Source of the DNA: an uncultured virus (IMG/VR IMGVR_UViG_3300021399_004696)
Lineage: Duplodnaviria > Heunggongvirae > Uroviricota > Caudoviricetes
Reading direction: 5' to 3' (one strand)
Virus record (IMG/VR): IMGVR_UViG_3300021399_004696
Length of the DNA: 64,000 bases
In this document: piece by piece, positions 5,076 to 64,000 of the stretch
Layout of the letters: each line of letters begins with the position of its first letter
How positions within the stretch are numbered: position 1 is the first letter of the stretch
Made by a program: the position numbers and the translations under genes
Notes under the pieces: generated by a model
Seen by the model: the letters and a program-made list of their open reading frames with translations, nothing else
Told to the model about the DNA's origin: nothing
Databases searched by the model: none

Positions 5076-5101
5076 AATATATAAACTTACAGAAACGGAG
5101 G

Positions 5102-5130
5102 AAAGAGCATCCTAAACGGGTGCTTTTTTA
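5102..5130 (+). terminator. intrinsic terminator after the HipA-like gene
   Basis: AGCATCC/GGGTGCT stem followed by a T run. Confidence 0.6.
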
Positions 5131-5140
5131 TTGGAACAAA

Positions 5141-36800: not shown

Positions 36801-39800
36801 ATTATAGAGGAGAAACGTACGATTTCTATATCTGTCCTCATTTGACCGTAGATTATAATTTGAATACCGGAAATCCTGATACAGATTCTCATCCTACAAG
36901 GCATTGGTTAAGTTCCGGTCAGAATGTTGATCCTACTGAACAGCGTGTTGCTTATTATATGAATACAAATGCCAGAGAAGGGTACACATTCCTTGGTTGG
37001 TCTTACACGCCTGATGGCGAAGTTGCTATTCCTGCATCTGATACTGAGTCGGCAAGATTTAATGCTCTGGAGCATACTGTTTTGTATGCACAGTGGGAGC
37101 TTACCGGAGATCCTACGATTACGCCTGAGCCGGCTGACAGTAATGCCAGATATATCAGGATTACCTATAATACTCAGAGAAGTGTAGTTGCGCCCGGTAC
37201 TTCGTTCAGTAATGAGTCGCAGATCATGGATATGTATTATGATGTGGAGTATCAAGAGAGTAAAGTTAATCCTGATACAGGCATTGATGAAGGTGGTTTC
37301 ACATTTGGCGGATATTTACCTGAACTTATGCCGATCCGTGATTATATGGTCACGAATAGTGACGGGACTACATACTACTTTGACGGTTGGTATACAGAGC
37401 CTAACGGTCAGGGCATTAAGGTAGAAGAAGGCACAGACGTTTATTGCGCTTATACGGAGAGCATGACCTTATATGGTCATTGGATCGAAGGTGTAAAGAT
37501 CTACTTTAATGCTTTCGGTGTTAATGCGCCGAGTTCAATAGACGATCTGACATATTACGGTGCAACTAATTACTCTGATGGGTATAAAGCAAACACCGAT
37601 ACATCTATCGATGCTCAGTATTATATGGTAATGAATCCTAATGTGCCCATCGGTAATATTTTGAAAAATATAAACGATCGTTCTACGCCTGCTACTAAAA
37701 CATTTATTGGCTGGTTTATGGACGATACTGATGCTCAGATGCTGACCGGTGAAGAGTTACCTATAGTGGATCACGTATATTGGGCGCATTGGTCTTCTGA
37801 TCCTGCAGTTACAACGGTAACGAGCGGAGATATTGAGTATAGTTACAGAATTGAGTGGGCTAATGTTTCTAACAGAGTTTCTGCGGATAAACTGTGGTTT
37901 GTTAATAAGCAGCCTGAGCAGAATATGATCATCAGCTTCTCTGTTAACTCTCCTACGCAGACCCTTCCTGCAGGTGCTATATCCATTAAGTTGCCTTATG
38001 AGGGGTCTATGCAGAATGTTGCCCAGTATCCTGACACGACGTACGGCGGTTTCTTCTCTTATCGCGTAGTAAGTCCTACGTGGAGTAACGATACGTACAT
38101 ACCCGGGTATTACGAACTTATTAATACAGTACCTATTTCCGGTGCCGGTATTGAGGGTGTTGTTGAGATCCCTGCGCCTACGCTCAGGCAGTCACCTACA
38201 GATAAGGCATACACCGTATCCATAACAGTTGATGAAGATGTTGATGGAACGCCTGAATATGAGTACGAGAAAGAAATGTCTTGGCACTTTGAGGGCGGTG
38301 TATCATATTTGAACGGTGCCAGCTATTATCAAGGTACTTATTATCAGACTTGGAATTCTTCTTGGGGCGCGCAACCTGCCGGCTCGGAAAACTATTTCTA
38401 TATTGATTGGGAGTTAAAAGCAAGCAGGTCTAATTCCAGTTATGTTGATGGTAGCGGTGTTATGTCTGCAACTGCAGTCGGAGCTCCTGCAGAAGGCGTT
38501 TATACCGTTAAAACGACAAGACGCAACGCCGGTAGTGGATCGTATCGCCTTCATGTTATCCGTGCTTATCCCATGTCTATGATAGACCCCGAATCCGGGC
38601 GTTGTACCGTAGATGAACAGTTTGCTGTTACTTGGAATCCTAATTTCGTGGTTCGTGGTACTACCAGTCCTGACACGATGATCATTGATGCTGAAAAAAC
38701 GGTTCGCTGGGAAAGATATACGCACGTAATGCTTAATTATTCCATGGGCCGTAACGGTACAGCACGCGAAAAGAACGTACTTGAAAACTTTGTTAGTGCT
38801 ACGGGGTCGCCTATCACAAACCTTCAGTGGCACGTAACTTATGAGAATAGCTCTCCTATTAACAGGGAGTACGATCACGGAGATCTTATTTCTTCAGAGT
38901 GGGTAAATGAAGAGATCGCGTTGTCTGTATTACCTGGGGATGTTTATTATAATTCGGGTGCGCCGGATGACTATTATGATTGGCACCCCGAGTTTGGTAA
39001 TGAAGTTCTCGGTCAGGAGGACTATGCTATTACAAATCTGTCGATCATTCGTTATTCCAGAACAGCAGATGCAGAGTTGGATGAGTCGATGCTGTGGGCA
39101 ACGTCTCGTATATATACAGATCCGATTACGGTAGATCTGTATGTACAGAGAAGGGGAGATACAGAGCCTGTTTATTATAATACTTATACGTTTAATAACG
39201 GATCTACAAGTCAGCAGAACATAACGCTTCCTGGCAATATTGTAGGTGTCGTGGCTAAGACACAGACGAATGGAGCATATTATTCATATTTCAGGATTCT
39301 TCCTACTTTGAAGATCCTGCATACGGATCGTATGGTCACATTGATGGGTAACGATTATAATCAGAATGCTTCTTCTGTAATCAAACTCGGATCACATCTG
39401 GACATTACATATCCCGATTATGGCGGATATAATCCCACAAACTTCTGGGATGAGGTTCACATGGAATTCTCTGAGGCTGAATCTACAGGTAGCGCTTTGC
39501 TGGATTTGTATGAGATTACCGGTAATAGGCTTGGAGATGTATCTATATACGCAGAAGGCGTTTGCTCTAGCTTTACAAACAATTCATCTACAGGTGTCCA
39601 AAGTGCAAAGTTTACCTTTGGTGTAAGGCACGCGTCAACAGAAGCTACGGATTATCGTAATATTACTGACGGTACTTTCTATATCTATCTGCCCGCAGGC
39701 GCTACGGCCCGTGACATATCGTTGGTTTACGGTAGAACTCAAAGTGCAATGCCTACCAGTGGAAACAGGGTATCCGGAAAGGTGCCCGACTCTAAATATA

Positions 39801-42220: not shown

Positions 42221-42874
42221 ATGATTTACACTAATTGGGAAGATTTATACCGAGAATACAACAAAGAGCGTTCTGACATGTCGTTTGACGAAGAAGTTTC
42301 TTTTGTTGAAGATTGTTTTGATTCGTATGAACATTGGGGTTTTGCGCAGACATTTAAAACGCCCTATGAGGACAAGGCAAAGTACAACGGGATGAAATTT
42401 ACCGTTGATAAAAGGCTTTCTTATACAGAAGATGATGTCAATCTGGAAGTTCTTCCTATGTGGAAGATCAAGATGGAAAACGGCGATGTGATAGATGCAT
42501 ATCCTGAAGAAATATGTCTGGCTGAAAGAGAGCTGGTTATTACTGATGTTGATTTTGTATATACCGGCGGGGGCATCTTTCTATTCTGGGGCGCTCTTGA
42601 TAACGGGCAGTATTTTATTGCTGACGGAGATAGGTTCGATGTCAGGATCTTGAACGTTAATCCTAACGATTACGGCACAGATGACGAGATTTGGTACGCA
42701 GAGTGGCAGGAAGAACATCTGGTGCGCGATCTGAATACCGAGACCGAAGGGCCTGCTTTTATCCTTAAAATGTTTGACTGGATTCACAAGAATAAGGAAA
42801 ATGACCTCATGGACGGTATGGATTATATTGAAGAAGAGGCTGCAAGCCTGAGAGGTAAAAGAGGGTGGAGATAA
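42221..42874 (+). CDS. hypothetical protein
   Basis: 217-aa acidic ORF. Confidence 0.8.
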   Translation: MIYTNWEDLYREYNKERSDMSFDEEVSFVEDCFDSYEHWGFAQTFKTPYEDKAKYNGMKFTVDKRLSYTEDDVNLEVLPMWKIKMENGDVIDAYPEEICLAERELVITDVDFVYTGGGIFLFWGALDNGQYFIADGDRFDVRILNVNPNDYGTDDEIWYAEWQEEHLVRDLNTETEGPAFILKMFDWIHKNKENDLMDGMDYIEEEAASLRGKRGWR

Positions 42875-43851
42875 CGAGCATACAAAAAGAGGTCAATAAG
42901 ATATTAGAAGAATGTCCAAGTACTATTTTGTTAGGGTATGGCGGGAGTCACGCTTACGGCACGAATATTGAAACTTCCGATATAGATATCAGGGGCATTT
43001 ATATGAATCCTATAGAGGAGCTTATAGGCATCAGTGCCGATTCTGAGCAGTATATTCCTTCAGACGGTGATACAGTCATATATAGCATTAAAAAGATGTT
43101 TAAGCTTTTAGAAGACTGCAATCCTAATACGATCGAACTTTTAGGGCTTAATCCGGACGGCTATTTATATATCAGTCCTGCAGGTCAGCTTATACTGGAT
43201 AACAGCAGTGTCTTTTTATCCAAGAAAGCTACATATACTTTCGGTAATTACGCCAAAAGCCAACTTAACAGGCTTGTAAACAAGTCCGGCAGGGTCAGGG
43301 ACGAAGTCGAGGTAAACGAATTCCGTTCTTTGAAGAAAGTACAAGCATATTTGAAAAAGCGGTGGCCGAACATTGATCTGGAAGTTTTGTTTTATGATGA
43401 CCAACCCCATATTCAATTGAATAACAGCGTTGACATTGACACTTTTTCCAAGATCACTTCTGAGATCAATAATGTCCACGCCGATTATAAAAAGAGCATA
43501 CGAAATAATAAGGCAGAAGTTCATAATAAGCTTAGTAAACATATGATGCATCTTATCAGGCTGTATTATATGGGTATCGACATTTTGGAAAAAGGTGAGA
43601 TCAACACATATAGGGCAGAAGAGCATGATCTTTTAATGGATATTCGAAACTGTAAATATCTTGAAAAGGATATGGTAACTCCCACCTGGGATTTTATGAA
43701 TATTTTGACAAAGCTGAATGCCAGATTTGAATTGGCGTCAGTTAAATCCTCTTTACCTGAAAGGGCCGATAGGGATAAGATCAACTCTTTGATGCAGGAA
43801 TGTTTTGCTCTTTTTTACGGGGTGGAGATGCCAAAACCTTTTGAAATCTAA
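42865..43851 (+). CDS. Pol-beta superfamily nucleotidyltransferase (RlaP/YcgL-like)
   Basis: GGSHAYGT..SDIDIRG, NPNTIELL, KHMMHLIRL. Confidence 0.88.
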   Translation: MEITSIQKEVNKILEECPSTILLGYGGSHAYGTNIETSDIDIRGIYMNPIEELIGISADSEQYIPSDGDTVIYSIKKMFKLLEDCNPNTIELLGLNPDGYLYISPAGQLILDNSSVFLSKKATYTFGNYAKSQLNRLVNKSGRVRDEVEVNEFRSLKKVQAYLKKRWPNIDLEVLFYDDQPHIQLNNSVDIDTFSKITSEINNVHADYKKSIRNNKAEVHNKLSKHMMHLIRLYYMGIDILEKGEINTYRAEEHDLLMDIRNCKYLEKDMVTPTWDFMNILTKLNARFELASVKSSLPERADRDKINSLMQECFALFYGVEMPKPFEI

Positions 43852-44001: not shown

Positions 44002-45069
44002 ATGCCTCGACAATTAGCAAGTATTCAGAAGATTGACAGCTTAAGCCCGATTGAAGGGGCGGATATGATAGAACTTGCTCACATAAAAGGGTGGCAGGTT
44101 GTTGTCAAGAAGAATGAGTTTAAAGAGGGCGATCTCGGCGTGTATTTTGAGATCGATTCGTTTCTTCCTATAGATCCCCGATATGAGTTTTTGCGTAACA
44201 GCTCTTATAAGGTTTCCGACCTTCTGGGCGAAGGTTTCAGGATCAAAACAGTTAAATTGAGAGGTCAGTTAAGCCAAGGCCTTTTGTTATCGGTTAAAAA
44301 CTTTCCTGAGATCAAAGATCCCATTGTCGGTTCAGACGTTACTGAAATTCTCGGTGTTCGCAAGTGGGAGATCGCGACCAGGGCGTCGTCTTCTGGAACT
44401 ATAATCGCAGATCTTCCTTCATATGTTCCTTATACGGATGAGATACGCATTCAAAACATCCCTGAAGTTATCGAAGAGATTAACAGATATGAATATTATA
44501 TATCTGTTAAGATGGACGGCACTTCTTGCAGTGTTGCTATTGATACAGAAGGGCAGTTTCATGTTTTCGGGCATCAGTATGAATATGCGGATGATGGAAC
44601 AAGCACGTTTTATGAGTGGGTAAAAGCTCATCATGTTGAAGAGCTTCTTCGGGATCTGTGGGAACCCGGTACATCTATAACAGTGCAAGGGGAGTATTGC
44701 GGTGCGGGTATTCAGAAAAATACGGCTAAATTGAGAGAGCCTTACTGGTTTATATTTACTGTATTAAAAAACGGCAAGAGGATCTCTCTTCACGAGATGA
44801 AGCGGGTTTCTAACAGGCTTCGTATCAGAACAGTGCCGATCATTGAATGCGGAGAAAGAGGTTCGTTCATTAAGAAGCATCCTACAGTTGAAAAGATCTT
44901 GGAATTTGCGGACGGACAATACAAAGATTTTGATGATGAGACAAAAGATGTGGGAAGAAGAGAGGGTATCGTCATCAGGTCTCAGACTCCCGTGTATTCA
45001 TCGATCGTGTCCGGCGATCTGTCTTTTAAGGCGGTAAGTAATAAGTATTTATTGAAGAACGACGATTAA
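44002..45069 (+). CDS. ATP-dependent RNA ligase (DRB0094/Rnl2-like)
   Basis: N-terminal IEGADMIE..GWQVVV..YFEIDS; motif I KMDGTS; QGEY; EGIV; SFKAVSNKYL. Confidence 0.92.
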   Translation: MPRQLASIQKIDSLSPIEGADMIELAHIKGWQVVVKKNEFKEGDLGVYFEIDSFLPIDPRYEFLRNSSYKVSDLLGEGFRIKTVKLRGQLSQGLLLSVKNFPEIKDPIVGSDVTEILGVRKWEIATRASSSGTIIADLPSYVPYTDEIRIQNIPEVIEEINRYEYYISVKMDGTSCSVAIDTEGQFHVFGHQYEYADDGTSTFYEWVKAHHVEELLRDLWEPGTSITVQGEYCGAGIQKNTAKLREPYWFIFTVLKNGKRISLHEMKRVSNRLRIRTVPIIECGERGSFIKKHPTVEKILEFADGQYKDFDDETKDVGRREGIVIRSQTPVYSSIVSGDLSFKAVSNKYLLKNDD

Positions 45070-55420: not shown

Positions 55421-56359
55421 ATGAGTATGCTTACATTTGAAGAATTTAAGACCGAATGTATAAAAGTTTTTCAAGAATTGCATCCTGATGCAGAGGTTGA
55501 GATTATGCGTATGGTTAACCAAGGGGGCTATGACGGGATAGTCGTTAAAGGCGGGGAACGTCAACTTGGTGGAGCTACGGTTACTCCGGTTTTTAACGCG
55601 GATCAATCTTATAAAGAATATAAGTATGGTAAATACGATTCGATCGAAGAGTGTGTTAAAACTTTTGATAGATATCAGGCTCCCGCTAACGTGAAAGAAA
55701 CTGCGCAAAATCTTTTAGATTATGCTTGGGCGCGCGATCGTATTTTACCTGAATTGTTTAATCCCGAAACAGACGGGGCTCGTATAGAAACCCTTTTAAA
55801 CCGTGATTTTTTCAATCTCAGTCTTTGTTATTCTATTAACATAGATGAGCATAGTATACTACGCATTCCGCCGGATTTAGCGGAGACGTGGGGCGTTACG
55901 GAAGAAGATCTGTATTCGGTGGCAATGGAGAATTGTCTTAACAAAAAAGCTTTTGCTTCATATGGGATCGATTTAGGTACTTTTTTAAAGACTGGCGAAG
56001 CAAAGACTCAATCTATACAGAATTTCTTGCAACAGACAACAAAAACAAGCATGTTACTTAAAACCGATAACAAGATTAACGCAGCTCCGCTTTTGTTTGA
56101 TAAAGATATCTTTAATAAGTTGGAGGAACGTATCGGTAGTTATTATATAGCAATGCCGGCTAAAGGGGATATTTTGATATTCCCGACAGAAAATTTTAAC
56201 GATGAGGATTTGAAGTTTGATCTGGCGGAGCATGTTAAGGAATCATATTCTATGATCCCGCCGGAGGACAGACTGTCTTCTGAAATGTATTATTTTAACT
56301 CGTTGGAACAAGAGATAGATATGGTAGATCTATCTTTTAGAATATCCGATCTTTTATAA
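55421..56359 (+). CDS. DUF5688-like hypothetical protein
   Basis: WGVTEEDLY..AMEN and EDRLSSEMYYF patterns. Confidence 0.7.
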   Translation: MSMLTFEEFKTECIKVFQELHPDAEVEIMRMVNQGGYDGIVVKGGERQLGGATVTPVFNADQSYKEYKYGKYDSIEECVKTFDRYQAPANVKETAQNLLDYAWARDRILPELFNPETDGARIETLLNRDFFNLSLCYSINIDEHSILRIPPDLAETWGVTEEDLYSVAMENCLNKKAFASYGIDLGTFLKTGEAKTQSIQNFLQQTTKTSMLLKTDNKINAAPLLFDKDIFNKLEERIGSYYIAMPAKGDILIFPTENFNDEDLKFDLAEHVKESYSMIPPEDRLSSEMYYFNSLEQEIDMVDLSFRISDLL

Positions 56360-56372
56360 GGAGACTATAGAA

Positions 56373-56807
56373 ATGGCCAATATTATACTTCCCCAGGATT
56401 TTGTAGACAGTTGTGACGGTGATTGGACTATCAGAACTTGTGAAACAGCTCCGAATAATAATAAAGAAGAAAGTGTTTGGATCGAGTTTGAGGCTTGGTC
56501 TCCTGCAGGTGAAGATCTGCCTCTTGATCTGTATTTTGACGGAACATGTCAGTCTCTTATTAAATCGCTTCAGGAATACTGTGATACTTTTGATGTAGAC
56601 GAGCATGTTGAGTTGTGGATTGGTTCAAGAGGGCAGAGAGGAGTTCCCGGAACCGTCAGCGAGCTGTTAGAAGACGCAAAAGCTATCGACAAGATGCAAA
56701 AAGATCTTCTTAAATCCATTCAGGATTATTATAAATCTAAGCTCTTGGAAGACAGTATTGGCGCAATCAGGCTTGACCTTGAAATAGAGCCTGAGCGCGG
56801 GTTGTGA
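56373..56807 (+). CDS. hypothetical protein
   Basis: AAGGAG RBS; 144 aa. Confidence 0.8.
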   Translation: MANIILPQDFVDSCDGDWTIRTCETAPNNNKEESVWIEFEAWSPAGEDLPLDLYFDGTCQSLIKSLQEYCDTFDVDEHVELWIGSRGQRGVPGTVSELLEDAKAIDKMQKDLLKSIQDYYKSKLLEDSIGAIRLDLEIEPERGL

Positions 56808-56821
56808 TTTACAACTTAGAA

Positions 56822-56854
56822 TTCCGGGCATATTTAAGTAACTTGGGGTATCAT
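56822..56854 (+). promoter_or_regulatory. TTCCGGG-N20-TATCAT promoter motif upstream of the tRNA-array leader
   Basis: Recurrent motif; a second, extended -10 (TGtTATGGT) lies at 56939-56947. Confidence 0.65.
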
Positions 56855-57066
56855 ATTTTTAATACATAGAGAAGAAAAGGTTTTTAGAAAAATTTTTTTA
56901 AGTAACACCAAAAACGCCTGGACTTTTCAAAATGGATATGTTATGGTTAATTCAGATAAAAGGAAGTGCCTGCCTGATATCTGATTACAAGATCTTAAAT
57001 AGGGATTATTTGTAATTGGATATGAGACAGGCATTTTTAATGAAAAAGAAGAAAGGAAAAACGGTC

Positions 57067-57213
57067 ATGAAAACTATGTCGTTAAGAAAAGTGCATATGT
57101 GGAATCTGGAAACGCAGAAGATAAGTGCGTTGGCTTTCACCTGCTCACTTAATGATGTAGCAGAGCGTTTTGACGGTATTTACGGATATCCCAATACAGG
57201 TGGGCGATCTTAG
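57067..57213 (+). CDS. putative attenuator leader peptide (48 aa, all 20 amino acids)
   Basis: AAAGG RBS; 42 distinct codons; stop codon overlaps the antiterminator arm. Confidence 0.7.
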   Translation: MKTMSLRKVHMWNLETQKISALAFTCSLNDVAERFDGIYGYPNTGGRS

Positions 57214-57281
57214 GGTTATAGGATTATAAGTTGTTTCTATAAGATCGCTCGAAGTTTCAAAGGTTCGGGCGATTTTTTATT
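57202..57281 (+). promoter_or_regulatory. attenuator: antiterminator 57202-57212/57240-57250 versus terminator 57243-57253/57264-57274 plus T run
   Basis: Two mutually exclusive 11-bp helices share 57243-57250. Confidence 0.75.
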
Positions 57282-57372
57282 AGAAAAATCAAGTAGGGAA
57301 GGGGAGTGTTAAAAACAGGCATTAAAACAATAAGGGGGTCATTAAAGCAGGCACTTCAAGGCTCTCTTATCT

Positions 57373-57448
57373 GGACAGTAAGCTAATCTGGTGAAAGCAT
57401 CGGTTTGAAGCACCGAAGAGGTTGGATCGAAACCAACACTGTCCACCA
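57373..57448 (+). tRNA. tRNA-Phe(GAA), atypical
   Basis: Cloverleaf with CCA; A8, T-loop ATCGAAA, anticodon loop TTGAAGC. Confidence 0.75.
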
Positions 57449-57453
57449 TATAT

Positions 57454-57530
57454 GGGGCTTTAGCTCAGTTGGGATGAGCGTCTGCCTTGCAAGCAGAAGG
57501 TCACGAGTTCGATCCTCGTAAGCTCCACCA
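57454..57530 (+). tRNA. tRNA-Ala(TGC)
   Basis: Cloverleaf; G3:T70; CCA. Confidence 0.95.
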
Positions 57531-57535
57531 TATAT

Positions 57536-57612
57536 GCTCGATTAGCTCAGCTGGGATGAGCATCTGCCTTACAAGCAGAGGGCCGGGGGTTCGAAACCCT
57601 CATCGAGCACCA
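57536..57612 (+). tRNA. tRNA-Val(TAC)
   Basis: Cloverleaf; loop CTTACAA; CCA. Confidence 0.93.
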
Positions 57613-57616
57613 CAAC

Positions 57617-57666
57617 TTTATCGGTTCATGTGACCCGATAAATGGTCCGATAAATGACCCGATAAT
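57617..57666. repeat. 12-bp repeats TGACCCGATAAA-like (one inverted, three direct)
   Basis: 57617-57628 inverted; direct copies at 57631, 57643 and 57655. Confidence 0.7.
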
Positions 57667-57815
57667 ATCGATATTGTAAGCAGGCACTTTAATATCGAAT
57701 CGAACTTTGACAATTAAATATTCTTCCATATTCACTATATCCCTGTGGCGAAGGGTTGTTCAGGGTATTTCGGTGGATCGGCCTGAGCATAAAACCTAAC
57801 CGTCCACTGTCTTTT

Positions 57816-57891
57816 GTCCCATTGGTGTAATGGTTTAGCACTCCTGCCTTCCAAGCAGGCAATGAGGGTTCGATTCCCTTATGGGGCTCCA
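57816..57891 (+). tRNA. tRNA-Gly(TCC)
   Basis: Cloverleaf; loop CTTCCAA; TCCA end. Confidence 0.93.
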
Positions 57892-57896
57892 TATAT

Positions 57897-57983
57897 GGGT
57901 GGGTAAACCGTAGTTGGTAGCGGGTCAGACTGTAAATCTGATGTCTTTCGGCTCCGGGGGTTCGATTCCCTCCCCACTCACCA
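57897..57983 (+). tRNA. tRNA-Tyr(GTA)
   Basis: Loop CTGTAAA; long variable arm; CCA. Confidence 0.92.
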
Positions 57984-57987
57984 AAAT

Positions 57988-58064
57988 GGATGCGTAGCTC
58001 AGTTGGCAGTAGCAGCAGACTCTTAATCTGAAGGTCGCAGGTTCGATGCCTGTCGCATCCACCA
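57988..58064 (+). tRNA. tRNA-Lys(CTT)
   Basis: Loop CTCTTAA; CCA. Confidence 0.92.
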
Positions 58065-58069
58065 CATAT

Positions 58070-58145
58070 CGAGGTGTAAGCCAGTGGTCAGACGGCGTGC
58101 CTTGGGAGCACGAAGACGAAGGTTCGAATCCTTCCACCTCGACCA
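58070..58145 (+). tRNA. tRNA-Pro(TGG)
   Basis: C1:G72; loop CTTGGGA; CCA. Confidence 0.92.
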
Positions 58146-58152
58146 TTTATAT

Positions 58153-58226
58153 CGTAGCTTCTTTCAATGGTAGGAAGCCCGTCTGATAAGCGGGTAATAC
58201 AAGTTCAATTCTTGTAGCTACGACCA
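58153..58226 (+). tRNA. tRNA-Ile(GAT)
   Basis: Loop CTGATAA; CCA; divergent D arm. Confidence 0.85.
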
Positions 58227-58331
58227 GGCGGGCCGACATACTAGTTGTTGTCGGATAGTGGCCAGAAGCCGAAAGCGGTGTTCCCGAAAGAAAGGCGCGT
58301 TATCCTTTCGGTTAAAGCCGTCCCGTCGCCA
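58227..58331 (+). ncRNA. tRNA-like orphan RNA with acceptor-type stem and GCCA end
   Basis: GGCGGG/CCCGTC closing stem; internal hairpins; no canonical D or T loops. Confidence 0.5.
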
Positions 58332-58335
58332 CTAA

Positions 58336-58412
58336 GGGCATGTAGCTCAGTTGGTCAGAGCATCCGGCTCATAACCGGACGGTCCAGAGTTCGAGTCTCT
58401 GCTTGCCCACCA
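58336..58412 (+). tRNA. tRNA with CAT anticodon, probably Ile2
   Basis: CGG-CTCATAA-CCG arm and CGGTC variable loop as in Firmicutes Ile2. Confidence 0.85.
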
Positions 58413-58418
58413 CATTTA

Positions 58419-58451
58419 TTCCGGGTGTTGCGGTCTAACACAAAGTATAAT
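58419..58451 (+). promoter_or_regulatory. TTCCGGG-N20-TATAAT internal promoter
   Basis: Recurrent motif with a perfect -10. Confidence 0.75.
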
Positions 58452-58465
58452 AAATATGTTGACAC

Positions 58466-58545
58466 GGCGCGTTGGTGAAGCTTGGTTCAACACACCGCCC
58501 TTTCACGGCGGCACTCACTCGGTTCAAATCCGGTACGCGTCACCA
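58466..58545 (+). tRNA. tRNA-Glu(TTC)
   Basis: CCGCC-CTTTCAC-GGCGG arm; CCA. Confidence 0.9.
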
Positions 58546-58549
58546 AGAT

Positions 58550-58625
58550 GCTTCTATAACTCAGTTGGTAGAGTGACTGCCTTGTAAGCAGTAAGTCCAG
58601 GGTTCGAGTCCCTGTAGAAGCTCCA
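58550..58625 (+). tRNA. tRNA-Thr(TGT)
   Basis: Loop CTTGTAA; CCA. Confidence 0.93.
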
Positions 58626-58631
58626 AAAGCC

Positions 58632-58930
58632 CGCCGAGGCCCGATCGTAAGGTCGCAGGCTGTGAGGTGAAAGACGGATCGCTGAGACGGTGTAGCCGGT
58701 AGATATGCGTATCGAAAGCTTTAACGCGAAAGGCTCGGTTTATAAGCAACCGGTTAAATGCTTATCCCCAAAGGCTCCGCGGGGTAAAAGCGGTTAGCTC
58801 CTAAACCGCAAGGCGCTTAGGGCGGGTGAAGGGGAGTTGCCTTATATGAGATCGATATAAGGTTTATGAAACTCCAAGCGCTAAAGTCGTCGACACCGTA
58901 ACGGACTGCAGTAACGTGTACAGGACGGCG
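58632..58930 (+). ncRNA. ~300-nt highly structured orphan RNA
   Basis: Nested long-range helices, GNRA loop and a potential pseudoknot; no ORF. Confidence 0.65.
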
Positions 58931-58938
58931 CATTATAC

Positions 58939-59013
58939 GGCCCTATGGTATAACGGCTATTATGGCGGATTGTCTCTCCGCAGACCGGGGTTCGACTCCC
59001 CGTAGGGTCGCCA
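58939..59013 (+). tRNA. tRNA-Asp(GTC)
   Basis: Loop TTGTCTC; GCCA end. Confidence 0.88.
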
Positions 59014-59180
59014 GTTAAGTGAGGGAGTTTCGGGAAAGGCTAATGGCTTTGAAAAAAGCTATTGGTCGGCACTGAAACAGGAAACGTGCAAAGAAGGGTT
59101 AGCCTTCATAAAGATGCGGGGAAGCTTTCCAGGCATCTTGAACTATCAGTCCCGATGCCAAAGACGGTGCATGTGCTGAC
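59014..59180 (+). ncRNA. ~170-nt structured orphan RNA
   Basis: TCGGGA/TCCCGA stem enclosing four hairpins, including a 13-bp GAAA-loop hairpin. Confidence 0.55.
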
Positions 59181-59188
59181 TTTAATAT

Positions 59189-59264
59189 TCTCGGGTAGTT
59201 CAATCGGTAGAGCAACGGACTGTTAATTCGTGAGTTGTGGGTTCGAGTCCCACCCCGGGAGCCA
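59189..59264 (+). tRNA. tRNA-Asn(GTT)
   Basis: Loop CTGTTAA; GCCA end. Confidence 0.93.
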
Positions 59265-59359
59265 AATAATCTAGGAAAGTGAGGGTTAGGATAGTGTTGG
59301 GGACTCCTAAGCTGATTTCCAAAGCGGAGGACCTTCGGTCTTTATAAAGGAGTGCGAGG

Positions 59360-59704
59360 ATGGAAATAGAACGGATCTCCAAAGATGAATTTGTAAAAAT
59401 TCTAAAAAAGATACAAGACGATTGGGATTTTTATTCTTTAATATCTTCTTTAGGTCATAAGAATAACAGAGAGGATACTTTGAATATATCGCCTAAGACC
59501 GTTGATGTTGCGATTGAGCTTTTAGAAAAGCTAAGTGGGGATAGGTATGAATATATTTCCTGGTGGTGTTTCGAAAAAGATTTCGGAAGACGAGTTGATA
59601 TAAATGTTTATGAAGGAAAGGGCGAAGATCAAATAGTTCCTACAGATACGGCGGAGGATCTTTATGATCTGATTACGCAGAATTTGCAAGAAAAAGCTTC
59701 TTAA
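59360..59704 (+). CDS. hypothetical protein within the tRNA array
   Basis: AAGGAG RBS; ISWWCFEKDFG and TAEDLYDL. Confidence 0.8.
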   Translation: MEIERISKDEFVKILKKIQDDWDFYSLISSLGHKNNREDTLNISPKTVDVAIELLEKLSGDRYEYISWWCFEKDFGRRVDINVYEGKGEDQIVPTDTAEDLYDLITQNLQEKAS

Positions 59705-59760
59705 TAGCGGATAGAAGAGGAAGGTCGTGACCATCGCTATCTGCTACGACCATATATTAA

Positions 59761-59884
59761 GAAGAGGTAGGTTGGGATTAAGTTACCCGTTCGCAAGGCC
59801 TTACCACCCGAAACCTGTGAGAGTCAAATATCGGGGAACTCCAAGGGATTTACCCTTGCCAGCGGAGGTTGGGCTCCGCACTTC
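59761..59884 (+). ncRNA. ~125-nt multi-branched orphan RNA
   Basis: GAAG/CTTC closure enclosing four hairpins. Confidence 0.45.
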
Positions 59885-59886
59885 AT

Positions 59887-59961
59887 GTTGATCTTGGTGT
59901 AATGGTAGCATTACAGATTGTGGCTCTGTCGGTATGGGTTCAACTCCCGTAGATCAACCCA
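59887..59961 (+). tRNA. tRNA-His(GTG)
   Basis: G-1:C73 pair; loop TTGTGGC; CCA. Confidence 0.92.
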
Positions 59962-59966
59962 AATAC

Positions 59967-60040
59967 GCGCCATTGGTGTAATGGTAGCACATTAGCTTCC
60001 CAAGCTGACAGTACGGGTTCGATCCCCGCATGGCGCTCCA
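59967..60040 (+). tRNA. tRNA-Gly(CCC)
   Basis: Loop TTCCCAA; TCCA end. Confidence 0.92.
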
Positions 60041-60067
60041 TTTTACGCCACAAAAATTTAGTGACAA

Positions 60068-60143
60068 GCTCCTGTTCGTCGTCGGCCGGCGGTGCGGTCT
60101 GCAAAACCGTAACATGTGAGTTCGAGTCTCACCGGGAGCTCCA
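60068..60143 (+). tRNA. tRNA-Cys(GCA)
   Basis: Loop CTGCAAA; U73; divergent D loop. Confidence 0.82.
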
Positions 60144-60146
60144 TAA

Positions 60147-60222
60147 GCCCCCGTAGCACAACAGGAGGTGCAACGCCCTTCTAAGGCGAAGGTTGCAGGT
60201 TCGAGCCCTGTCGGGGGTACCA
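60147..60222 (+). tRNA. tRNA-Arg(TCT)
   Basis: Loop CTTCTAA; CCA. Confidence 0.92.
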
Positions 60223-60240
60223 GTAATGTTAAGTGAATAT

Positions 60241-60316
60241 GCCCCTGTCTTTCAACCGAATAGGAAAGCGGTTTCCTAAACCGCCAATCAGAGTTTGAGT
60301 CTCTGCAGGGGTACCA
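60241..60316 (+). tRNA. tRNA-Arg(CCT), divergent
   Basis: Loop TTCCTAA; T loop TTTGAGT; CCA. Confidence 0.8.
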
Positions 60317-60330
60317 CAAATGAGTAATGA

Positions 60331-60369
60331 TTTGTGATGATTTTTCGGTTTTGTGATGATTTGTGATGA
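60331..60369 (+). repeat. three copies of TTTGTGATGA
   Basis: Copies at 60331, 60350 and 60360. Confidence 0.65.
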
Positions 60370-60388
60370 CTTATCAACACTTTAAAAC

Positions 60389-60463
60389 GGTCGCGTAGGC
60401 TAATGGATAGACTTTCTGACTACGGATCAGACGGTGCGGGTTCGACTCCTGCCGCGATCGCCA
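60389..60463 (+). tRNA. tRNA-Arg(ACG)
   Basis: Loop CTACGGA; GCCA end. Confidence 0.92.
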
Positions 60464-60494
60464 CGTCTTATAAAACACGATGAAGAAAGGAGTG

Positions 60495-60995
60495 ATGAAT
60501 ATCGTGTTCAGACAAGCTAACGGAAGAGAAATATCGATGGAAGGAATCGCTAAGCGGATCGCGGGTTTCATCAATGCCGATCTTCAAAGTGAATACGAGG
60601 TTACCGTGGGTACCGACAGTCAGAACTTCAGTAAGACTAAGATGGTAGAAGTCATAGCGGTACATCGTGCAGGGACGGGAGGGATCTATTTTTATAGCAT
60701 CGATTATATTCCTCTTATTCAGAATCTGAAGCAAAAGATCAATGAAGAGACTTCACGTAGCCTTATGGTGGCTAATGAACTTATTGATGAGTTGACTTTT
60801 GCACTGATGGAGAAAGAGCAGGATATAGATGAACTGAAACTTTCTTTCCAGATCCACTGCGACATAGGAAAATATGGTAAGACCAGCATGTTGATAAAAG
60901 AGATCACTAGTTGGGTAACCAGTCAAGGTTATGTATGTCTTATCAAGCCTGACAGCTATGCAGCAAGTGCTATAGCAAACAAGTATAGTAAGTAA
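60495..60995 (+). CDS. RNase H-like YkuK (DUF458) family protein
   Basis: VGTDSQ, KINEETSRSL, IHCDIG, IKPDSYAAS..AN. Confidence 0.9.
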   Translation: MNIVFRQANGREISMEGIAKRIAGFINADLQSEYEVTVGTDSQNFSKTKMVEVIAVHRAGTGGIYFYSIDYIPLIQNLKQKINEETSRSLMVANELIDELTFALMEKEQDIDELKLSFQIHCDIGKYGKTSMLIKEITSWVTSQGYVCLIKPDSYAASAIANKYSK

Positions 60996-61036
60996 AGGTT
61001 TCGGCGTTCCTTAAAACCAAAAACGCCGATCCATAT

Positions 61037-61113
61037 GGCGCCATCCTATAAACGGTTAGTAGACCGGACTCTCAATCCGGCAATGTCGGGTTCGATCCCC
61101 ACTGGCGTCACCA
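61037..61113 (+). tRNA. tRNA-Glu(CTC)
   Basis: Loop CTCTCAA; CCA. Confidence 0.9.
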
Positions 61114-61116
61114 TAT

Positions 61117-61192
61117 GCAGGATTAGCTCAATTGGTAGAGCGTCGCCTTGCCATGGCGAAGGTTGCGGGTTCAAGCCCCGTATCTTGCTCCA
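61117..61192 (+). tRNA. tRNA-Gly(GCC)
   Basis: Loop TTGCCAT; TCCA end. Confidence 0.93.
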
Positions 61193-61206
61193 CTTTTATA
61201 ATAAAC

Positions 61207-61283
61207 GCTTCCGTGGCGCAATTGGCAGACGCAGGCGGTTCAGGGCCGTCAGGTTCCGAGTTCGAGTCTCGGCGGAAGCACCA
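61207..61283 (+). tRNA. tRNA-Leu(CAG), short variable loop
   Basis: Leu-type D loop; loop TTCAGGG; A73. Confidence 0.85.
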
Positions 61284-61299
61284 CTTTGGAAAAACATAC

Positions 61300-61379
61300 G
61301 CCCGCGTAGCAGAATTTGGCATATGCGCCAGACTAAGGATCTGGGTCTTTTCGGGGTTCGACTCCCCGCGTGGGCACCA
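61300..61379 (+). tRNA. tRNA-Leu(AAG), short variable loop
   Basis: Loop CTAAGGA; A73. Confidence 0.85.
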
Positions 61380-61381
61380 AC

Positions 61382-61414
61382 TTCCGGGATTTATCAAACT
61401 TTTTCTTGTAATAT
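61382..61414 (+). promoter_or_regulatory. TTCCGGG-N20-TAATAT internal promoter
   Basis: Recurrent motif. Confidence 0.7.
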
Positions 61415-61431
61415 TAATCTTAGGTTGAAAT

Positions 61432-61508
61432 GTCCGATTGATGGAATTGGCATACGTGCCTGACTCAAAATCAGGATTTTTCGGGTTCGAGTCCCGAATC
61501 GGACACCA
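61432..61508 (+). tRNA. tRNA-Leu(CAA), short variable loop
   Basis: Loop CTCAAAA; A73. Confidence 0.87.
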
Positions 61509-61620
61509 GCTGGGGATGCCCGAGCACTCAAAGGGGCCGGCGCGTATCACCGGTGTCCGATGGACGGCGTGCACCTTGCGTCCAGGACTGCGTAGGTATA
61601 GAATCCTGCTCCCCGCACCA
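61509..61620 (+). ncRNA. aberrant tRNA-Tyr-like RNA with very long variable arm
   Basis: Tyr-like D arm; 9-nt loop with GTA; T-arm-like hairpin; ACCA end. Confidence 0.6.
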
Positions 61621-61632
61621 ATTTTCTTAAAA

Positions 61633-61709
61633 GCCCAAGTAGGCCAATTGGCAGAACCACCGGACTTAAAATCCGTATCGTGCCGGTTCGAATCCGGTCT
61701 TGGGCACCA
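61633..61709 (+). tRNA. tRNA-Leu(TAA), short variable loop
   Basis: Loop CTTAAAA; A73. Confidence 0.85.
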
Positions 61710-61713
61710 ACAT

Positions 61714-61787
61714 AGGCGTATGATGTAATGGTAGCATGACGGTCTCCAAAACCGTTTGTGTGGGTTCAAGTCCTACTACGCCTGCCA
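61714..61787 (+). tRNA. tRNA-Trp(CCA)
   Basis: Loop CTCCAAA; GCCA end. Confidence 0.93.
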
Positions 61788-61798
61788 TTAAAATAAAT

Positions 61799-61874
61799 GC
61801 CGAATTAACTCAGTTGGTAGAGTAGCGGTATCGTAAACCGCAGGTCGTGGGTTCGAGTCCCACATTCGGCTCCA
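61799..61874 (+). tRNA. tRNA-Thr(CGT)
   Basis: Loop ATCGTAA; CCA. Confidence 0.93.
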
Positions 61875-61876
61875 AC

Positions 61877-61909
61877 TTCCGGGTAGATTCGCCAGTGATG
61901 TGGCATACT
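61877..61909 (+). promoter_or_regulatory. TTCCGGG-N20-CATACT internal promoter
   Basis: Recurrent motif with TGn extension. Confidence 0.7.
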
Positions 61910-62006
61910 GAGATTAGTAACGAGGAAGGTGAAGGTATCATTCATGAATGTCACTGTTGTAATTGCGGAGCCCGCATTACATACAGAATACCGATAGGAG
62001 AAGAAA

Positions 62007-62243
62007 ATGAGGAAGCATAATGTCGATGAAATTCATCTGTCTGTAGATAAGGTTGAGATAGTTAATGATACGGTTATCATTAGCTGGAGCTCGGATATTG
62101 GATTCGGCGAGTACGAAATCTGTTGGTCTGAGGAAGCACAGGAATGGTGTGCATACACAGAATGTATGGATAGGGACGACGATAAGGCGTTCGGAGCCAA
62201 ACTTTTGGCACTGTGGATGGAGCAGATAAAGATAAGGGATTGA
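62007..62243 (+). CDS. hypothetical protein within the tRNA array
   Basis: AGGAG RBS; WSSDIGFGEY and TECMD..DK motifs. Confidence 0.75.
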   Translation: MRKHNVDEIHLSVDKVEIVNDTVIISWSSDIGFGEYEICWSEEAQEWCAYTECMDRDDDKAFGAKLLALWMEQIKIRD

Positions 62244-62250
62244 TCAAGAC

Positions 62251-62325
62251 GGCCGTGTAGTGTAAACGGTAGCACAGCAGACTTTGACTCTGTTAATGTG
62301 GGTTCGATCCCCGCCACGGCTGCCA
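62251..62325 (+). tRNA. tRNA-Gln(TTG)
   Basis: Loop CTTTGAC; GCCA end. Confidence 0.92.
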
Positions 62326-62348
62326 CATAGCAAATAATTTTTGAATAA

Positions 62349-62425
62349 GCGCCCGTAGCTCAGACGGTAGCAGCACTTGACTTTTAATCAAGGGGTCATG
62401 GGTTCGAATCCCATCGGGCGTACCA
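62349..62425 (+). tRNA. tRNA-Lys(TTT)
   Basis: Loop CTTTTAA; CCA. Confidence 0.94.
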
Positions 62426-62492
62426 ATATGAAGAATCTTGGCAAATCTGAAGTTGTACTTTGGATCAGTCAAATATACTGGAGAATGTTGAA

Positions 62493-62792
62493 ATGAAAAA
62501 ACTGCTGATCTTAGCTACTATGCTGTTTATGGTACTTGCTACTTTACTGGGCATTTGGTGCTATCGTGAATATAGGGCTGAGGAGAATGCCAAGGGCATT
62601 TGCATCAGTTATCGTGATCTTGATGTAGGGAGTACGTACGGGTTAGATGTTACATTCTATTCAGACGAAGAGCAGGTCGTAGGAACAGGGTATGTAGAAT
62701 TTCAGCCTGAGACAAAAGATTCATCTTGTTGCTTGATAGACTGCGATGTTCCTGAAGGAGCCACACACGCATCTTTCAATATAGTAGAGTAA
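62493..62792 (+). CDS. small membrane-anchored or secreted hypothetical protein
   Basis: GGAG RBS; MKKLLILA hydrophobic N-terminus. Confidence 0.75.
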   Translation: MKKLLILATMLFMVLATLLGIWCYREYRAEENAKGICISYRDLDVGSTYGLDVTFYSDEEQVVGTGYVEFQPETKDSSCCLIDCDVPEGATHASFNIVE

Positions 62793-62808
62793 ATAGGTTT
62801 TATAATAT

Positions 62809-62882
62809 TGCGAGGAGGGTCTGGTTCCCAAGAAGCTCTCATAAGGCTTCCTATCCGAGTTCAAGTCTCGGCTTCGCAACCA
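62809..62882 (+). tRNA. tRNA-Met(CAT), atypical (initiator-like acceptor stem)
   Basis: TGCGAGG/CTTCGCA; loop CTCATAA; reduced D arm; lacks the three G-C initiator pairs. Confidence 0.7.
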
Positions 62883-62887
62883 CATAC

Positions 62888-62978
62888 GACGGGGTGGCGG
62901 AGTCCGGTCTAACGCGCCGGTCTTGAAAACCGGAGGCCTCGCAAGGGTCCGTGGGTTCGAATCCCACCCCCGTCGCCA
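62888..62978 (+). tRNA. tRNA-Ser(TGA)
   Basis: Loop CTTGAAA; long variable arm; GCCA end. Confidence 0.94.
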
Positions 62979-62982
62979 TTAT

Positions 62983-63058
62983 GCTTCCATAGCTCAGTAG
63001 GCAGAGTGCATCCATGGTAAGGATGAGGTCGTCGGTTCGATCCCGACTGGAAGCTCCA
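62983..63058 (+). tRNA. tRNA-Thr(GGT)
   Basis: Loop ATGGTAA; CCA. Confidence 0.93.
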
Positions 63059-63063
63059 ATTAT

Positions 63064-63138
63064 AGCCCGATCGTATAACGGCTAGTATAGCGGTCTCTGG
63101 AACCGCGGATGAAGGTTCGATTCCTTCTCGGGCTGCCA
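63064..63138 (+). tRNA. tRNA-Gln(CTG)
   Basis: Loop CTCTGGA; GCCA end. Confidence 0.9.
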
Positions 63139-63150
63139 AACTTTTACTAT

Positions 63151-63241
63151 GCCGTGGTACCTTAGTGGGGAGGAGGCGCGGTTTCGAAAACCGTCGGTCG
63201 TGAATAACGATCTGTGAGTTCAAATCTCACCCACGGCGCCA
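63151..63241 (+). tRNA. tRNA-Ser(CGA)
   Basis: Loop TTCGAAA; long variable arm; GCCA end. Confidence 0.88.
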
Positions 63242-63274
63242 GGAATATGAAAGACTATTTAATTGTATAGAAAT

Positions 63275-63363
63275 GTCGTCATGGGGTAATGGTAGCCCAA
63301 GAGCCTGCTAAGCTCTCCAACCCATTACGGGTTGTCCGAGTTCGAGTCTCGGTGGCGACGCCA
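63275..63363 (+). tRNA. tRNA-Ser(GCT)
   Basis: Loop CTGCTAA; long variable arm; GCCA end. Confidence 0.9.
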
Positions 63364-63369
63364 GATCTG

Positions 63370-63397
63370 AAAGCACTCTCTTCGGAGGGTGTTTTTG
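63370..63397 (+). terminator. intrinsic terminator ending the tRNA array
   Basis: GCACTCTC-TTCG-GAGGGTGT plus T run. Confidence 0.85.
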
Positions 63398-63428
63398 TTA
63401 TGTTGCAAAGAAAAAGCGGTGGTCGTAA

Positions 63429-63461
63429 TGCCGGGCTTTTTTAGGAGCTGCTGAGTAATAT
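63429..63461 (+). promoter_or_regulatory. TGCCGGG-N20-TAATAT promoter motif
   Basis: Variant of the recurrent motif. Confidence 0.65.
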
Positions 63462-63493
63462 GAAGACATAATACAGAAAAAGGAGTGTTTATC

Positions 63494-64000
63494 ATGCACA
63501 ATTTTAAGAAAGTTATCGGAATGTCGGTTTTAGCAAGTATTTTGCTTATGGGCTGCAGTGCAACCGAACCTACAGCTTCATTGGCGCCAACAGACTCTTC
63601 TGCTGGGGTAGAAGGGACAGCAATCGAGACAAGCGCAGTAGCAGAGACTACAGGGGTAGAGAACGTATCTGACTTGTCAGGTTATACCTTAGATGAAGGG
63701 TTTATGCCGTTCAGCTCAATTACTATTAACGGGACTGAGTACGCGTTCCCTGCAGCTTACAGCACGCTGGCAGAAGTTTTTCCTCTTAACGCCGAAATTA
63801 TGGGTGAATTTGCTCCTAACGGGTTGTACCCCGGAATGGAAGTAGCGTCTTATGTAACGTCTGATGACGGAGCAACACCGATCTATCCCGGTATTACGAT
63901 CTCTGTCGGAAATTATTATCAGGATATGTCCGGCGGCGACACTATCGCTATAGAGGATGGTCTGGTAAGGCATATTATCATTAATACGTGGGGAGACGAG
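63494..64000 (+). CDS. lipoprotein, truncated by the window end
   Basis: AAGGAG RBS; MHNFKKVIGMSVLASILLMGC lipobox; frame appears open to the edge. Confidence 0.75.
   Translation, partial: MHNFKKVIGMSVLASILLMGCSATEPTASLAPTDSSAGVEGTAIETSAVAETTGVENVSDLSGYTLDEGFMPFSSITINGTEYAFPAAYSTLAEVFPLNAEIMGEFAPNGLYPGMEVASYVTSDDGATPIYPGITISVGNYYQDMSGGDTIAIEDGLVRHIIINTWGDE

Follow-up and report, generated by a model that had tools for sequence, protein, structure and literature searches.

A codon-diverse leader before the tRNA array of a putative conjugative element: a candidate translation-dependent attenuator

The control of supernumerary transfer RNA (tRNA) arrays in bacteria and mobile elements is largely unknown, and only one case, in Anabaena, has been worked out. 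The same question is raised by a stretch of 64,000 nucleotides from an uncultured virus (IMG/VR record IMGVR_UViG_3300021399_004696; the whole stretch is referred to below as the window), in which 35 tRNA genes are preceded by a leader that contains a short open reading frame (ORF) and an intrinsic terminator: what decides whether these genes are transcribed? A preliminary description of the locus proposed that ribosomes translating the ORF gate the array. In this work, the codon content of the ORF, the competing RNA helices of the leader and the homologous leaders found before other arrays were analyzed. Taken together, they suggest, with a probability of about 0.7, that the leader is a transcription attenuator of the leader-peptide type, operated by ribosomes and responsive to how well the array tRNAs decode; these tRNAs would probably be made only when decoding falters.

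Codon diversity and competing helices of the leader

As the preliminary description stated, the 48 codons of the leader ORF specify all 20 amino acids with 42 different triplets. Only ATG and AAT (three times each) and AAA and GGT (twice each) are repeated, and the four Thr codons are all different, as are the four Ser codons. About 33 distinct codons had been expected from uniform draws, and the computed mean was 33.4, with P(≥42) = 1.2e-4. Stop-free mononucleotide shuffles of the ORF bases never reached 42 (0 of 10,186; mean 32.4, sd 2.16, maximum 40), and 42 was reached by one of 1,000,000 draws from the codon usage of the element itself (mean 30.3, sd 2.37). Only three of the 29,649 stop-free 48-codon segments in the six frames of the 64 kb hold at least 41 distinct codons, all of them at 57061-57210; frames +1 and +2 of the ORF stretch contain 34 and 35 distinct triplets. 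The codon diversity of the leader ORF is not due to chance. Upstream in-frame starts at 57016 and 57040 would contribute Lys codons only, and the ribosome-binding site (RBS) there is not comparable to that of ATG 57067.

The same diversity gives the ORF a codon for nearly every tRNA downstream. Under strict wobble rules 32 of the 34 array anticodons have a codon in the ORF, and under relaxed rules 33 of 34, a coverage matched by 24 (strict) and 18 (relaxed) of 200,000 simulated ORFs. The preliminary description had also drawn attention to the Leu codons TTA, CTG, TTG and CTT, which are indeed the exact cognates of the Leu anticodons of the array (TAA, CAG, CAA and AAG). The match is present, but its significance did not hold: exact Watson-Crick cognates in the ORF number 26 of 34, no more than 42/61 predicts, and the Leu codons therefore carry no weight beyond diversity.

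These statistics bear on the simplest alternative, namely that the ORF is an ordinary small gene with its own terminator and the array has its own promoter, codon diversity and RNA pairing being coincidental. A search with the 48-residue peptide returned two self matches only, among 2 candidates, and did not recover the homologous leader ORFs described below; the lack of relatives in the protein search would suit such a gene, as would the several intrinsic terminators that lie between co-directional genes in the window. The codon statistics, however, contradict coincidence, and so do the helices and the conservation described below.

The terminator that the preliminary description had placed just upstream of 35 tRNA genes, a number that ARAGORN also gives, is a good one (Table 1). 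Its hairpin begins 30 nt past the ORF stop and is followed by T6; the U run ends about 67 nt after the stop, and 93 nt separate the terminator end from the first tRNA gene. The consensus scan overlooked it because of its 10-nt loop. The pairing that had been noted between the last codons plus stop and the region of the terminator 5' arm was recovered as an antiterminator, within whose 5' strand the stop TAG lies. This helix is the minimum-energy fold (-18.9 kcal/mol) in all folding snapshots that end before the 3' arm of the terminator. The best upstream duplex available to the terminator 5' arm reaches -17.5 kcal/mol, compared with -8.6 ± 1.8 kcal/mol in shuffled sequences (0/500; z = -5.0), while nine other terminator-like hairpins of the window gave z values from -1.17 to +1.27 in the same competitor test. 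An ordinary gene would not account for such an outlier, which also covaries among homologues. In the co-transcriptional snapshots no upstream partner was seen for the 5' strand of the antiterminator, so that an untranslated leader should read through; in this folding model, such read-through fits a sensor of any translation failure. Variation in related DNA offers a hint of constraint on the leader, since among the 24 listed of the 25 differences in contig X3 (56484-58385) none falls in 56939-57292; contig X4 has 2 differences of unlisted position within 56939-57197.

Transcription is predicted to start at about 56954, from a promoter that aligns column for column with a -35 box, a 17-nt spacer and a -10 box upstream of all 17 homologous leaders of the first set described below. 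A consensus promoter scan reported no site on the + strand in 56344-62052, and the conserved leader promoter also lies below its threshold. Because the scan misses this promoter, it cannot exclude others and is too insensitive to discount one in 57281-57372, a point in favor of the ordinary-gene explanation. On the other hand, the distance from the ORF stop to the first tRNA is 109-122 nt in all but one of the 17 homologues of the first set, which leaves little room past the U run, and the whole unit is kept before other arrays. We consider the ordinary-gene explanation very improbable.

Table 1. Coordinates of the predicted leader elements and of the tRNA array in the window
Feature	Position	Strand	Remarks
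Leader promoter	56919-56947	+	-35 TGGACT (56919-56924), 17-nt spacer ending in TG, -10 TATGGT (56942-56947)
5' hairpin P1	56962-57038, into U run (to 57040)	+	5' arm more conserved than any other part of the family
Shine-Dalgarno sequence AGAAAGGA	57050-57057	+	9 nt upstream of ATG 57067
Leader ORF	57067-57213	+	48 codons, 42 distinct, all 20 amino acids; stop TAG 57211-57213
Small hairpin inside ORF	57111-57116 with 57126-57131	+	RNAalifold columns 202-207/220-225; kept in the family
Antiterminator	57201-57212 with 57240-57251	+	5' strand consists of the last codons of the ORF and its stop
Intrinsic terminator	57243/4-57253 with 57264-57274	+	10-nt loop, T run to 57279
CAGGCA(Y)T motif, two copies	57315-57323, 57347-57357	+	Complementary to the P1 5' arm
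tRNA array	57373-63363	+	ARAGORN: 35 tRNA genes, 34 distinct anticodons, all 20 amino acids; Rfam tRNA matches
YkuK-type RNase H-like gene inside array	60480-60995	+	Pfam PF04308, E = 2.9e-43
Terminator closing the tRNA array	63368-63397	+	

Homologous leaders and the arrays that they precede

Homologous leaders were found before 35 other tRNA arrays in rumen Saccharofermentans/Ruminococcaceae, 17 of them linked to ykuK and 18 detected through a sequence pattern in hairpin P1. These are accessory arrays of 3-23 tRNA genes. An alignment of the YkuK protein encoded inside the window array with its relatives gave 20 loci from species-representative genomes, of which one (L037), a weak 36-residue match in a cyanobacterial metagenome-assembled genome, was left out. 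One relative is 99% identical and none of the others exceeds 70%; the sources label some of these others as rumen Clostridia. In 18 of the 19 loci (relatives at 55-70% identity) an array of 5-23 tRNA genes ends just before ykuK, the sole locus without an array being L035, a 2-kb contig. Clear homology to positions 56919-57281 of the window is seen in the 450 bases that precede the first tRNA of each array. Alignment A2 comprises 17 of these loci and the window; the leaders of L022 and L023 are identical. The second set was obtained with a 22-nt pattern from the P1 5' arm; of 301 genomes from the order to which one carrier belongs, 38 contain it, always as a single copy (a reversed control pattern had 0 matches). 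Among 33 further genomes, two leaders were cut by contig ends and 31 were examined; 12 ORFs repeat the first set and 19 are new, and L090, whose ORF equals that of L082, was dropped to leave 18. The leader family is absent from Rfam: no T-box match was reported across 56000-64000 at E ≤ 1, and the leaders of the window and of L025 matched no Rfam family even at E ≤ 5.

The family leaders have in common the promoter geometry, an invariant 5' segment, P1 with its U run, GAAAGGA, an ATG, an ORF of 49-55 codons, a GGGCG-type segment at the ORF end and a terminator. The AAGGA core and the ATG columns of A2 are invariant or nearly so, and none of the 18 sequences has a stop in frame 0, compared with 1-6 stops in each of frames +1 and +2. 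RNAalifold applied to A2 recovered P1 and the terminator as well as two further hairpins, one within the ORF and a small one at its end, with compensatory changes in 16 of 46 pairs; five of the six pairs of the intra-ORF hairpin have such changes, and this hairpin is possibly a pause or timing element. The family antiterminator, which was specified by hand, is paired in 90.2% of cells by one count and in 94.4% by another, one of its pairs being GC in 10, AU in 7 and GU in 1 of the sequences. In 14 cells both sides have changed, compared with 6.4 ± 2.3 in shuffles (0/500), and when the partners are slid by 1-3 columns only 30-50% of cells pair. The terminator is paired in 96.2% of cells, with compensatory changes in 3 pairs. 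Because both helices are kept and covary, both states of the switch are under selection. In snapshot folds the terminator 5' arm pairs with the ORF end in 35 of 36 loci. The covariation of both helices among homologues despite peptide divergence, which the preliminary description had proposed as a check, is thus present in the family.

Between the U run and tRNA-Asn, about 20-30 nt before the first tRNA, homologous leaders such as those of L021 and L025 have a conserved CTTGACAAC/CTTGAAAAC motif, which is absent in the window; it resembles a -35 box, with no -10 box between it and the tRNA.

The peptides diverge, and what the leaders retain is a codon content matched to the array behind each of them. 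The leaders of the first set supply codons for 272 of the 284 anticodons in the arrays behind them, where about 79-80% would be expected; the 12 missing anticodons compare with 59.8 ± 6.0 in simulations from local codon usage (minimum 37 in 20,000), with 56 and 67 in frames +1 and +2, and with a mean of 38.2 when leaders are re-paired with other arrays (minimum 22 in 5,000). With one leader per cluster (80% ORF identity, 13 clusters), 10 anticodons are missing, against 50.3 in simulations and 29.2 after re-pairing; without the window the clustered values are 8, 39.8 and 23.7. The independent second set behaves in the same way: 149 of 154 anticodons are covered, the 5 missing comparing with 34.5 ± 4.7 simulated (minimum 16), 41 and 45 in frames +1 and +2, and 31.6 after re-pairing (minimum 15).

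Individual loci illustrate this matching. In L094, the array of which encodes tRNAs for Tyr, Ile, Asp and His, the leader is MKNVNVHGYIYSYAAYHYDPLYLECAFISISYDDHDDIYGRSKD and 49% of the codons are read by those tRNAs, against 17% expected; L071 has the same four tRNAs and the leader MDMKIFVIDIYHYDYDVCGRSGS. The leader of L085, which precedes an array for Asn, Phe, Lys, Tyr and Ile, is rich in Lys. A single Pro/His replacement distinguishes the otherwise near-identical leaders of L093 and L084, and the array of L093 includes tRNA-Pro without tRNA-His, that of L084 the reverse. Since contents differ even between near-identical leaders, host arrays turn over fast. They consist of extra copies, with 20 of 61 tRNA matches lying in the array in genome G002 and 21 of 64 in G003. 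Some anticodons of the host arrays are unusual: Leu-AAG and Ile-TAT occur in most, Phe-AAA in L026 and Tyr-ATA in L095.

Larger arrays have leaders of greater codon diversity (Spearman 0.61, n = 36; 0.58 without the window), and the window, with 34 anticodons, is the extreme. First-set homologues have 31-38 distinct codons in 49-55 and 14-19 kinds of amino acid. As each leader covers its own array, the complete array of the window would entail a pan-codon leader, which is therefore the limiting case of a codon-matched family; in it, the leaders of small arrays are rich in the amino acids of those very arrays, as in the classical design. The preliminary description has to be revised accordingly. 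The codon design it anticipated in homologues exists as coverage of their own arrays, in frame 0 only, but not as pan-codon diversity; and its label of an "inverse design" with respect to classical attenuators is not borne out, because homologous leaders track their own arrays and small arrays go with the classical arrangement.

A further alternative is a general translation-arrest sensor like those of Firmicutes resistance genes, in which any stalling drug induces and codon identity is irrelevant. Drug-stalling attenuators are known for bmrCD, mef/mel and a tylosin-induced methylase, and the logic of a leader ORF and an antiterminator freed by an early ribosome stop is shared. Most homologues also end in conserved RLRC followed by the stop, an invariant segment that forms a 5-bp hairpin around the stop codon. 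The conserved C-terminal codons, however, belong to the antiterminator and the small hairpin, and RLRC is absent in the window, L071, L094 and L097, the peptides being otherwise widely divergent. The segment is deleted in the window, so that the antiterminator becomes one continuous helix; the stop codon of the homologues separates the two 5' segments of the antiterminator or follows them closely, and in L072, L083 and L095 it is shifted 18 nt downstream. Codon content also follows array content by lineage, which a codon-blind sensor would not need. We regard a codon-blind arrest sensor as unlikely.

Candidate mechanism and the points that weigh against it

On the reading that we favor, a leader-peptide attenuator gauging decoding, transcription from the conserved promoter would pass P1 and then the 48-codon ORF with its good RBS. 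A ribosome that is not delayed would cover 57201-57212 as 57240-57251 emerges; with the antiterminator thus blocked, the terminator (57243-57279) would form and transcription would stop before the first tRNA. If a ribosome were held within about the first 40 codons, or never loaded, the antiterminator would form first and polymerase would read through into the 35 tRNA genes. Because the ORF has a codon for almost each array tRNA, slow decoding by any of them would turn the array on. Translation of the ORF, read-through caused by stalling and the natural trigger are steps that we infer; anticodon nucleases, drugs or starvation as triggers are conjecture.

The 5' part of the leader introduces another candidate, a real switch that is operated by RNA or by a factor: a ligand, tRNA or protein would bind the leader RNA, and the ORF would be incidental or modulatory. 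P1 and its U run follow directly after the predicted transcription start (A2 columns 12-110). The hairpin folds at -36.4 kcal/mol (z = -8.6), the homologue L025 folds alike, and pairs of its distal stem show compensatory changes. Its 5' arm, the most invariant segment of the leader, includes the Shine-Dalgarno-like AAGGAAGTG, and the 22 nt that are identical in 38 genomes go beyond what a plain stem needs. P1 with its U run resembles a terminator for which no antiterminator is visible; it may be a first terminator, a 5' stabilizer or a binding platform. The use of P1 as the start of a leaderless mini-ORF was considered and rejected, as the ATG of the homologues is absent in the window.

The motif complementary to the P1 5' arm, CAGGCA(Y)T, is retained and is mobile between lineages. 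Most homologues have it in the loop of a hairpin that separates the ORF from the terminator; its place is 3' of the terminator in the window, in L033 and in L071 and L097, the last two of which have two copies there. Its sites near the leader are 56966-56976 (complement), 57028, 57316, 57348 and 57681, and 6 copies were counted in the approximately 730 bp around the leader versus 32 in the whole window on both strands. The complementarity could provide a long-range stem that brackets the leader in read-through transcripts. Interpretations of the motifs as promoters or split-tRNA remnants were rejected, since neither a supporting -35/-10 spacing nor a T-arm was seen.

The retained motif, the invariance of P1 and the conserved hairpins within the ORF region all favor a switch operated by RNA or by a factor. 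Opposed to it are the lack of a T-box or any other Rfam match even at E ≤ 5, the absence of stops from the frame in 18 of 18 leaders, although indels occur and the peptides diverge, which a pure RNA sensor would not give, and codon-anticodon matching in frame 0 only, which is not expected of such a sensor. This possibility, too, appears unlikely.

Several observations weigh against the attenuator that we favor. First, the homologues are not pan-codon: overall they have 17-40 distinct codons and 11-19 kinds of amino acid. Second, matching is imperfect at some loci, as the leader of L068 has a His codon and its array no tRNA-His, L082 and L090 share one ORF and have 10 and 5 tRNAs, and L076 shows no enrichment. 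Such cases imply that arrays can change faster than leaders and that tRNAs can be lost without a drop in coverage, and part of the coverage signal could be inherited from larger ancestral arrays. Third, codon coverage was scored with generic wobble rules, and kinship was handled in the matching tests only by clustering at 80% identity. Fourth, a stall in the last seven or so codons, which include the unique CCC, ACA, GGG, CGA and TCT, would be expected from the ribosome footprint to mask the antiterminator. Fifth, RNA polymerase of Firmicutes is reported to outrun ribosomes, so that the timing would need a pause. Finally, P1 and the CAGGCA motif lie outside the attenuator model and could constitute a further layer of RNA- or factor-based control.

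The surrounding element and comparison with known systems

The array begins with tRNA-Phe at 57373 and is broken up by a few small genes. With 35 tRNA genes in 5,991 bases, on an element that carries conjugation genes, it is a long tRNA array (L-array), a class defined by at least 20 tRNA genes at no fewer than 2 per kb (PMC4758250) and spread by horizontal transfer. Its long G+C-rich spacers (58626-58938, 59014-59188 and 61509-61632) contain no ORF of at least 100 amino acids and no Rfam match at E ≤ 1, and may be structured RNAs or decayed genes.

All long ORFs of the window lie on the + strand. They encode a MobA/VirD2 relaxase, a type IV coupling protein, a VirB4-like ATPase, PrgI, a sortase and a signal peptidase, which together with a surface protein mark the window, as judged from its gene content, as a Gram-positive conjugative element; DNA polymerase A and a VapE-type primase are also encoded. 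An RlaP-type "RNA repair pathway" nucleotidyltransferase (42865-43851) and an RNA ligase (44002-45069; PHA02142 OB-fold domain) are encoded next to each other, 12 kb before the array, and may form a module for tRNA repair on the same element. The ORF at 30863-41260, adjoining the sortase and signal-peptidase genes, encodes 3,465 amino acids with 11 DUF285 repeats, BspA-type leucine-rich repeats, Listeria-Bacteroides repeats and DUF11, and is probably the surface adhesin of the element. A C-5 cytosine methyltransferase is seemingly split (3059-5548), with profile positions 2-240 in ORF 3059-3862 and 235-315 in ORF 5120-5548, and an ORF for a HipA-like kinase (3840-5075) lies between the two parts.

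Near-identical DNA occurs in contigs from ruminant gut and rumen sequencing runs, and the four DNA runs compared contain close variants; no RNA run was among those listed for the locus. The tRNA-Phe 29-mer was found in one metagenome contig, 100% identical to the window, and in no genome contig; in IMG/VR, neither this 29-mer nor the exact 33-mer of the terminator region had a match, and the YkuK protein had no relative. Relatives of the 144-residue protein encoded upstream were found at 15 IMG/VR loci, none of which has a tRNA within 3 kb (in L003, other genes lie downstream), so the neighborhood of that gene does not carry the array. BLAST searches of leader and array against phage and plasmid collections gave generic tRNA similarity only; a match to a Clostridioides difficile "plasmid" was rejected, as it consists of ordinary tRNA genes beside housekeeping genes.

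A bolder idea, possible and rather doubtful, is that of a programmable tRNA gauge: the ORF would list the array tRNAs by one codon each, and shortage of any one would switch on the spare set. The conjugative element, the list of which is complete, would together with its RNA-repair genes restore decoding in recipients with tRNAs that anticodon nucleases have cleaved or that do not fit the codons of the element, as a self-regulating counter-defence and host-range device made from a chromosomal homeostatic circuit of rumen Clostridia. If the favored reading is true, the leader would be a compact and re-programmable sensor of tRNA availability, spare arrays would be tolerated since they are off until needed, and a conjugative element would have a plausible route to guard its own expression against tRNA-targeting defences. 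The 36 leaders, with codon lists that differ by array, constitute a natural experiment, and some of the carriers, among them those of L019, L029 and L030, are isolate genomes.

An inducible spare array would not be new in itself. The trn array of Anabaena sp. PCC 7120 is silent in normal growth and induced by translational stress (PMC8421152; PMC10272220), so that such arrays are known biology. Like the array of the window, it is long, horizontally spread and supernumerary, and its carrier is a large extrachromosomal element. An RNA ligase is regulated together with it, and the element in the window likewise carries RNA-repair genes. The difference lies in the means of control, which in Anabaena is exerted by the repressor TrcR through direct repeats at the promoter (PMC8421152) and in the window would be a translated leader with an RNA switch. 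The main text of PMC8421152 uses none of the terms attenuat-, leader, terminator and uORF. A full-text literature search, with supplements outside its scope, returned no description of a leader-peptide attenuator before tRNA genes.

Two other classes of leader come close to the predicted device. T-box riboswitches are likewise Firmicute antiterminator/terminator leaders that report tRNA status; they bind uncharged tRNA directly and need no ORF, whereas the signal of the leader family is confined to one frame. In the leaders of bmrCD, mef/mel and the tylosin-induced methylase a stalled ribosome frees the antiterminator in response to impaired translation, as proposed for the window; their arrest depends on a drug and serves resistance genes, while the codons of the window leader are matched to the tRNAs downstream.

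A close parallel is provided by the attenuators of amino-acid operons (trp, his, leu, thr, ilv and pheA), in which a short ORF with its RBS lies just after the promoter, its codons are cognate to what the operon supplies, and its end abuts an antiterminator that competes with a terminator. The thr and ilv attenuators are multivalent and respond to several amino acids, and the trp leader resembles the window in geometry, its stop lying within the strand needed for antitermination. ORF, RBS, cognate codons and competition between antiterminator and terminator are thus alike. The leader family differs in having codons for 3-34 tRNA species, usually without runs, in its extra 5' hairpin, and in its hosts, which are Clostridia and a conjugative element. 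Whereas the classical attenuators control biosynthetic enzymes, the leaders described here would control tRNAs, and the sensor would be translation itself, codon by codon: textbook attenuation turned on the decoders.

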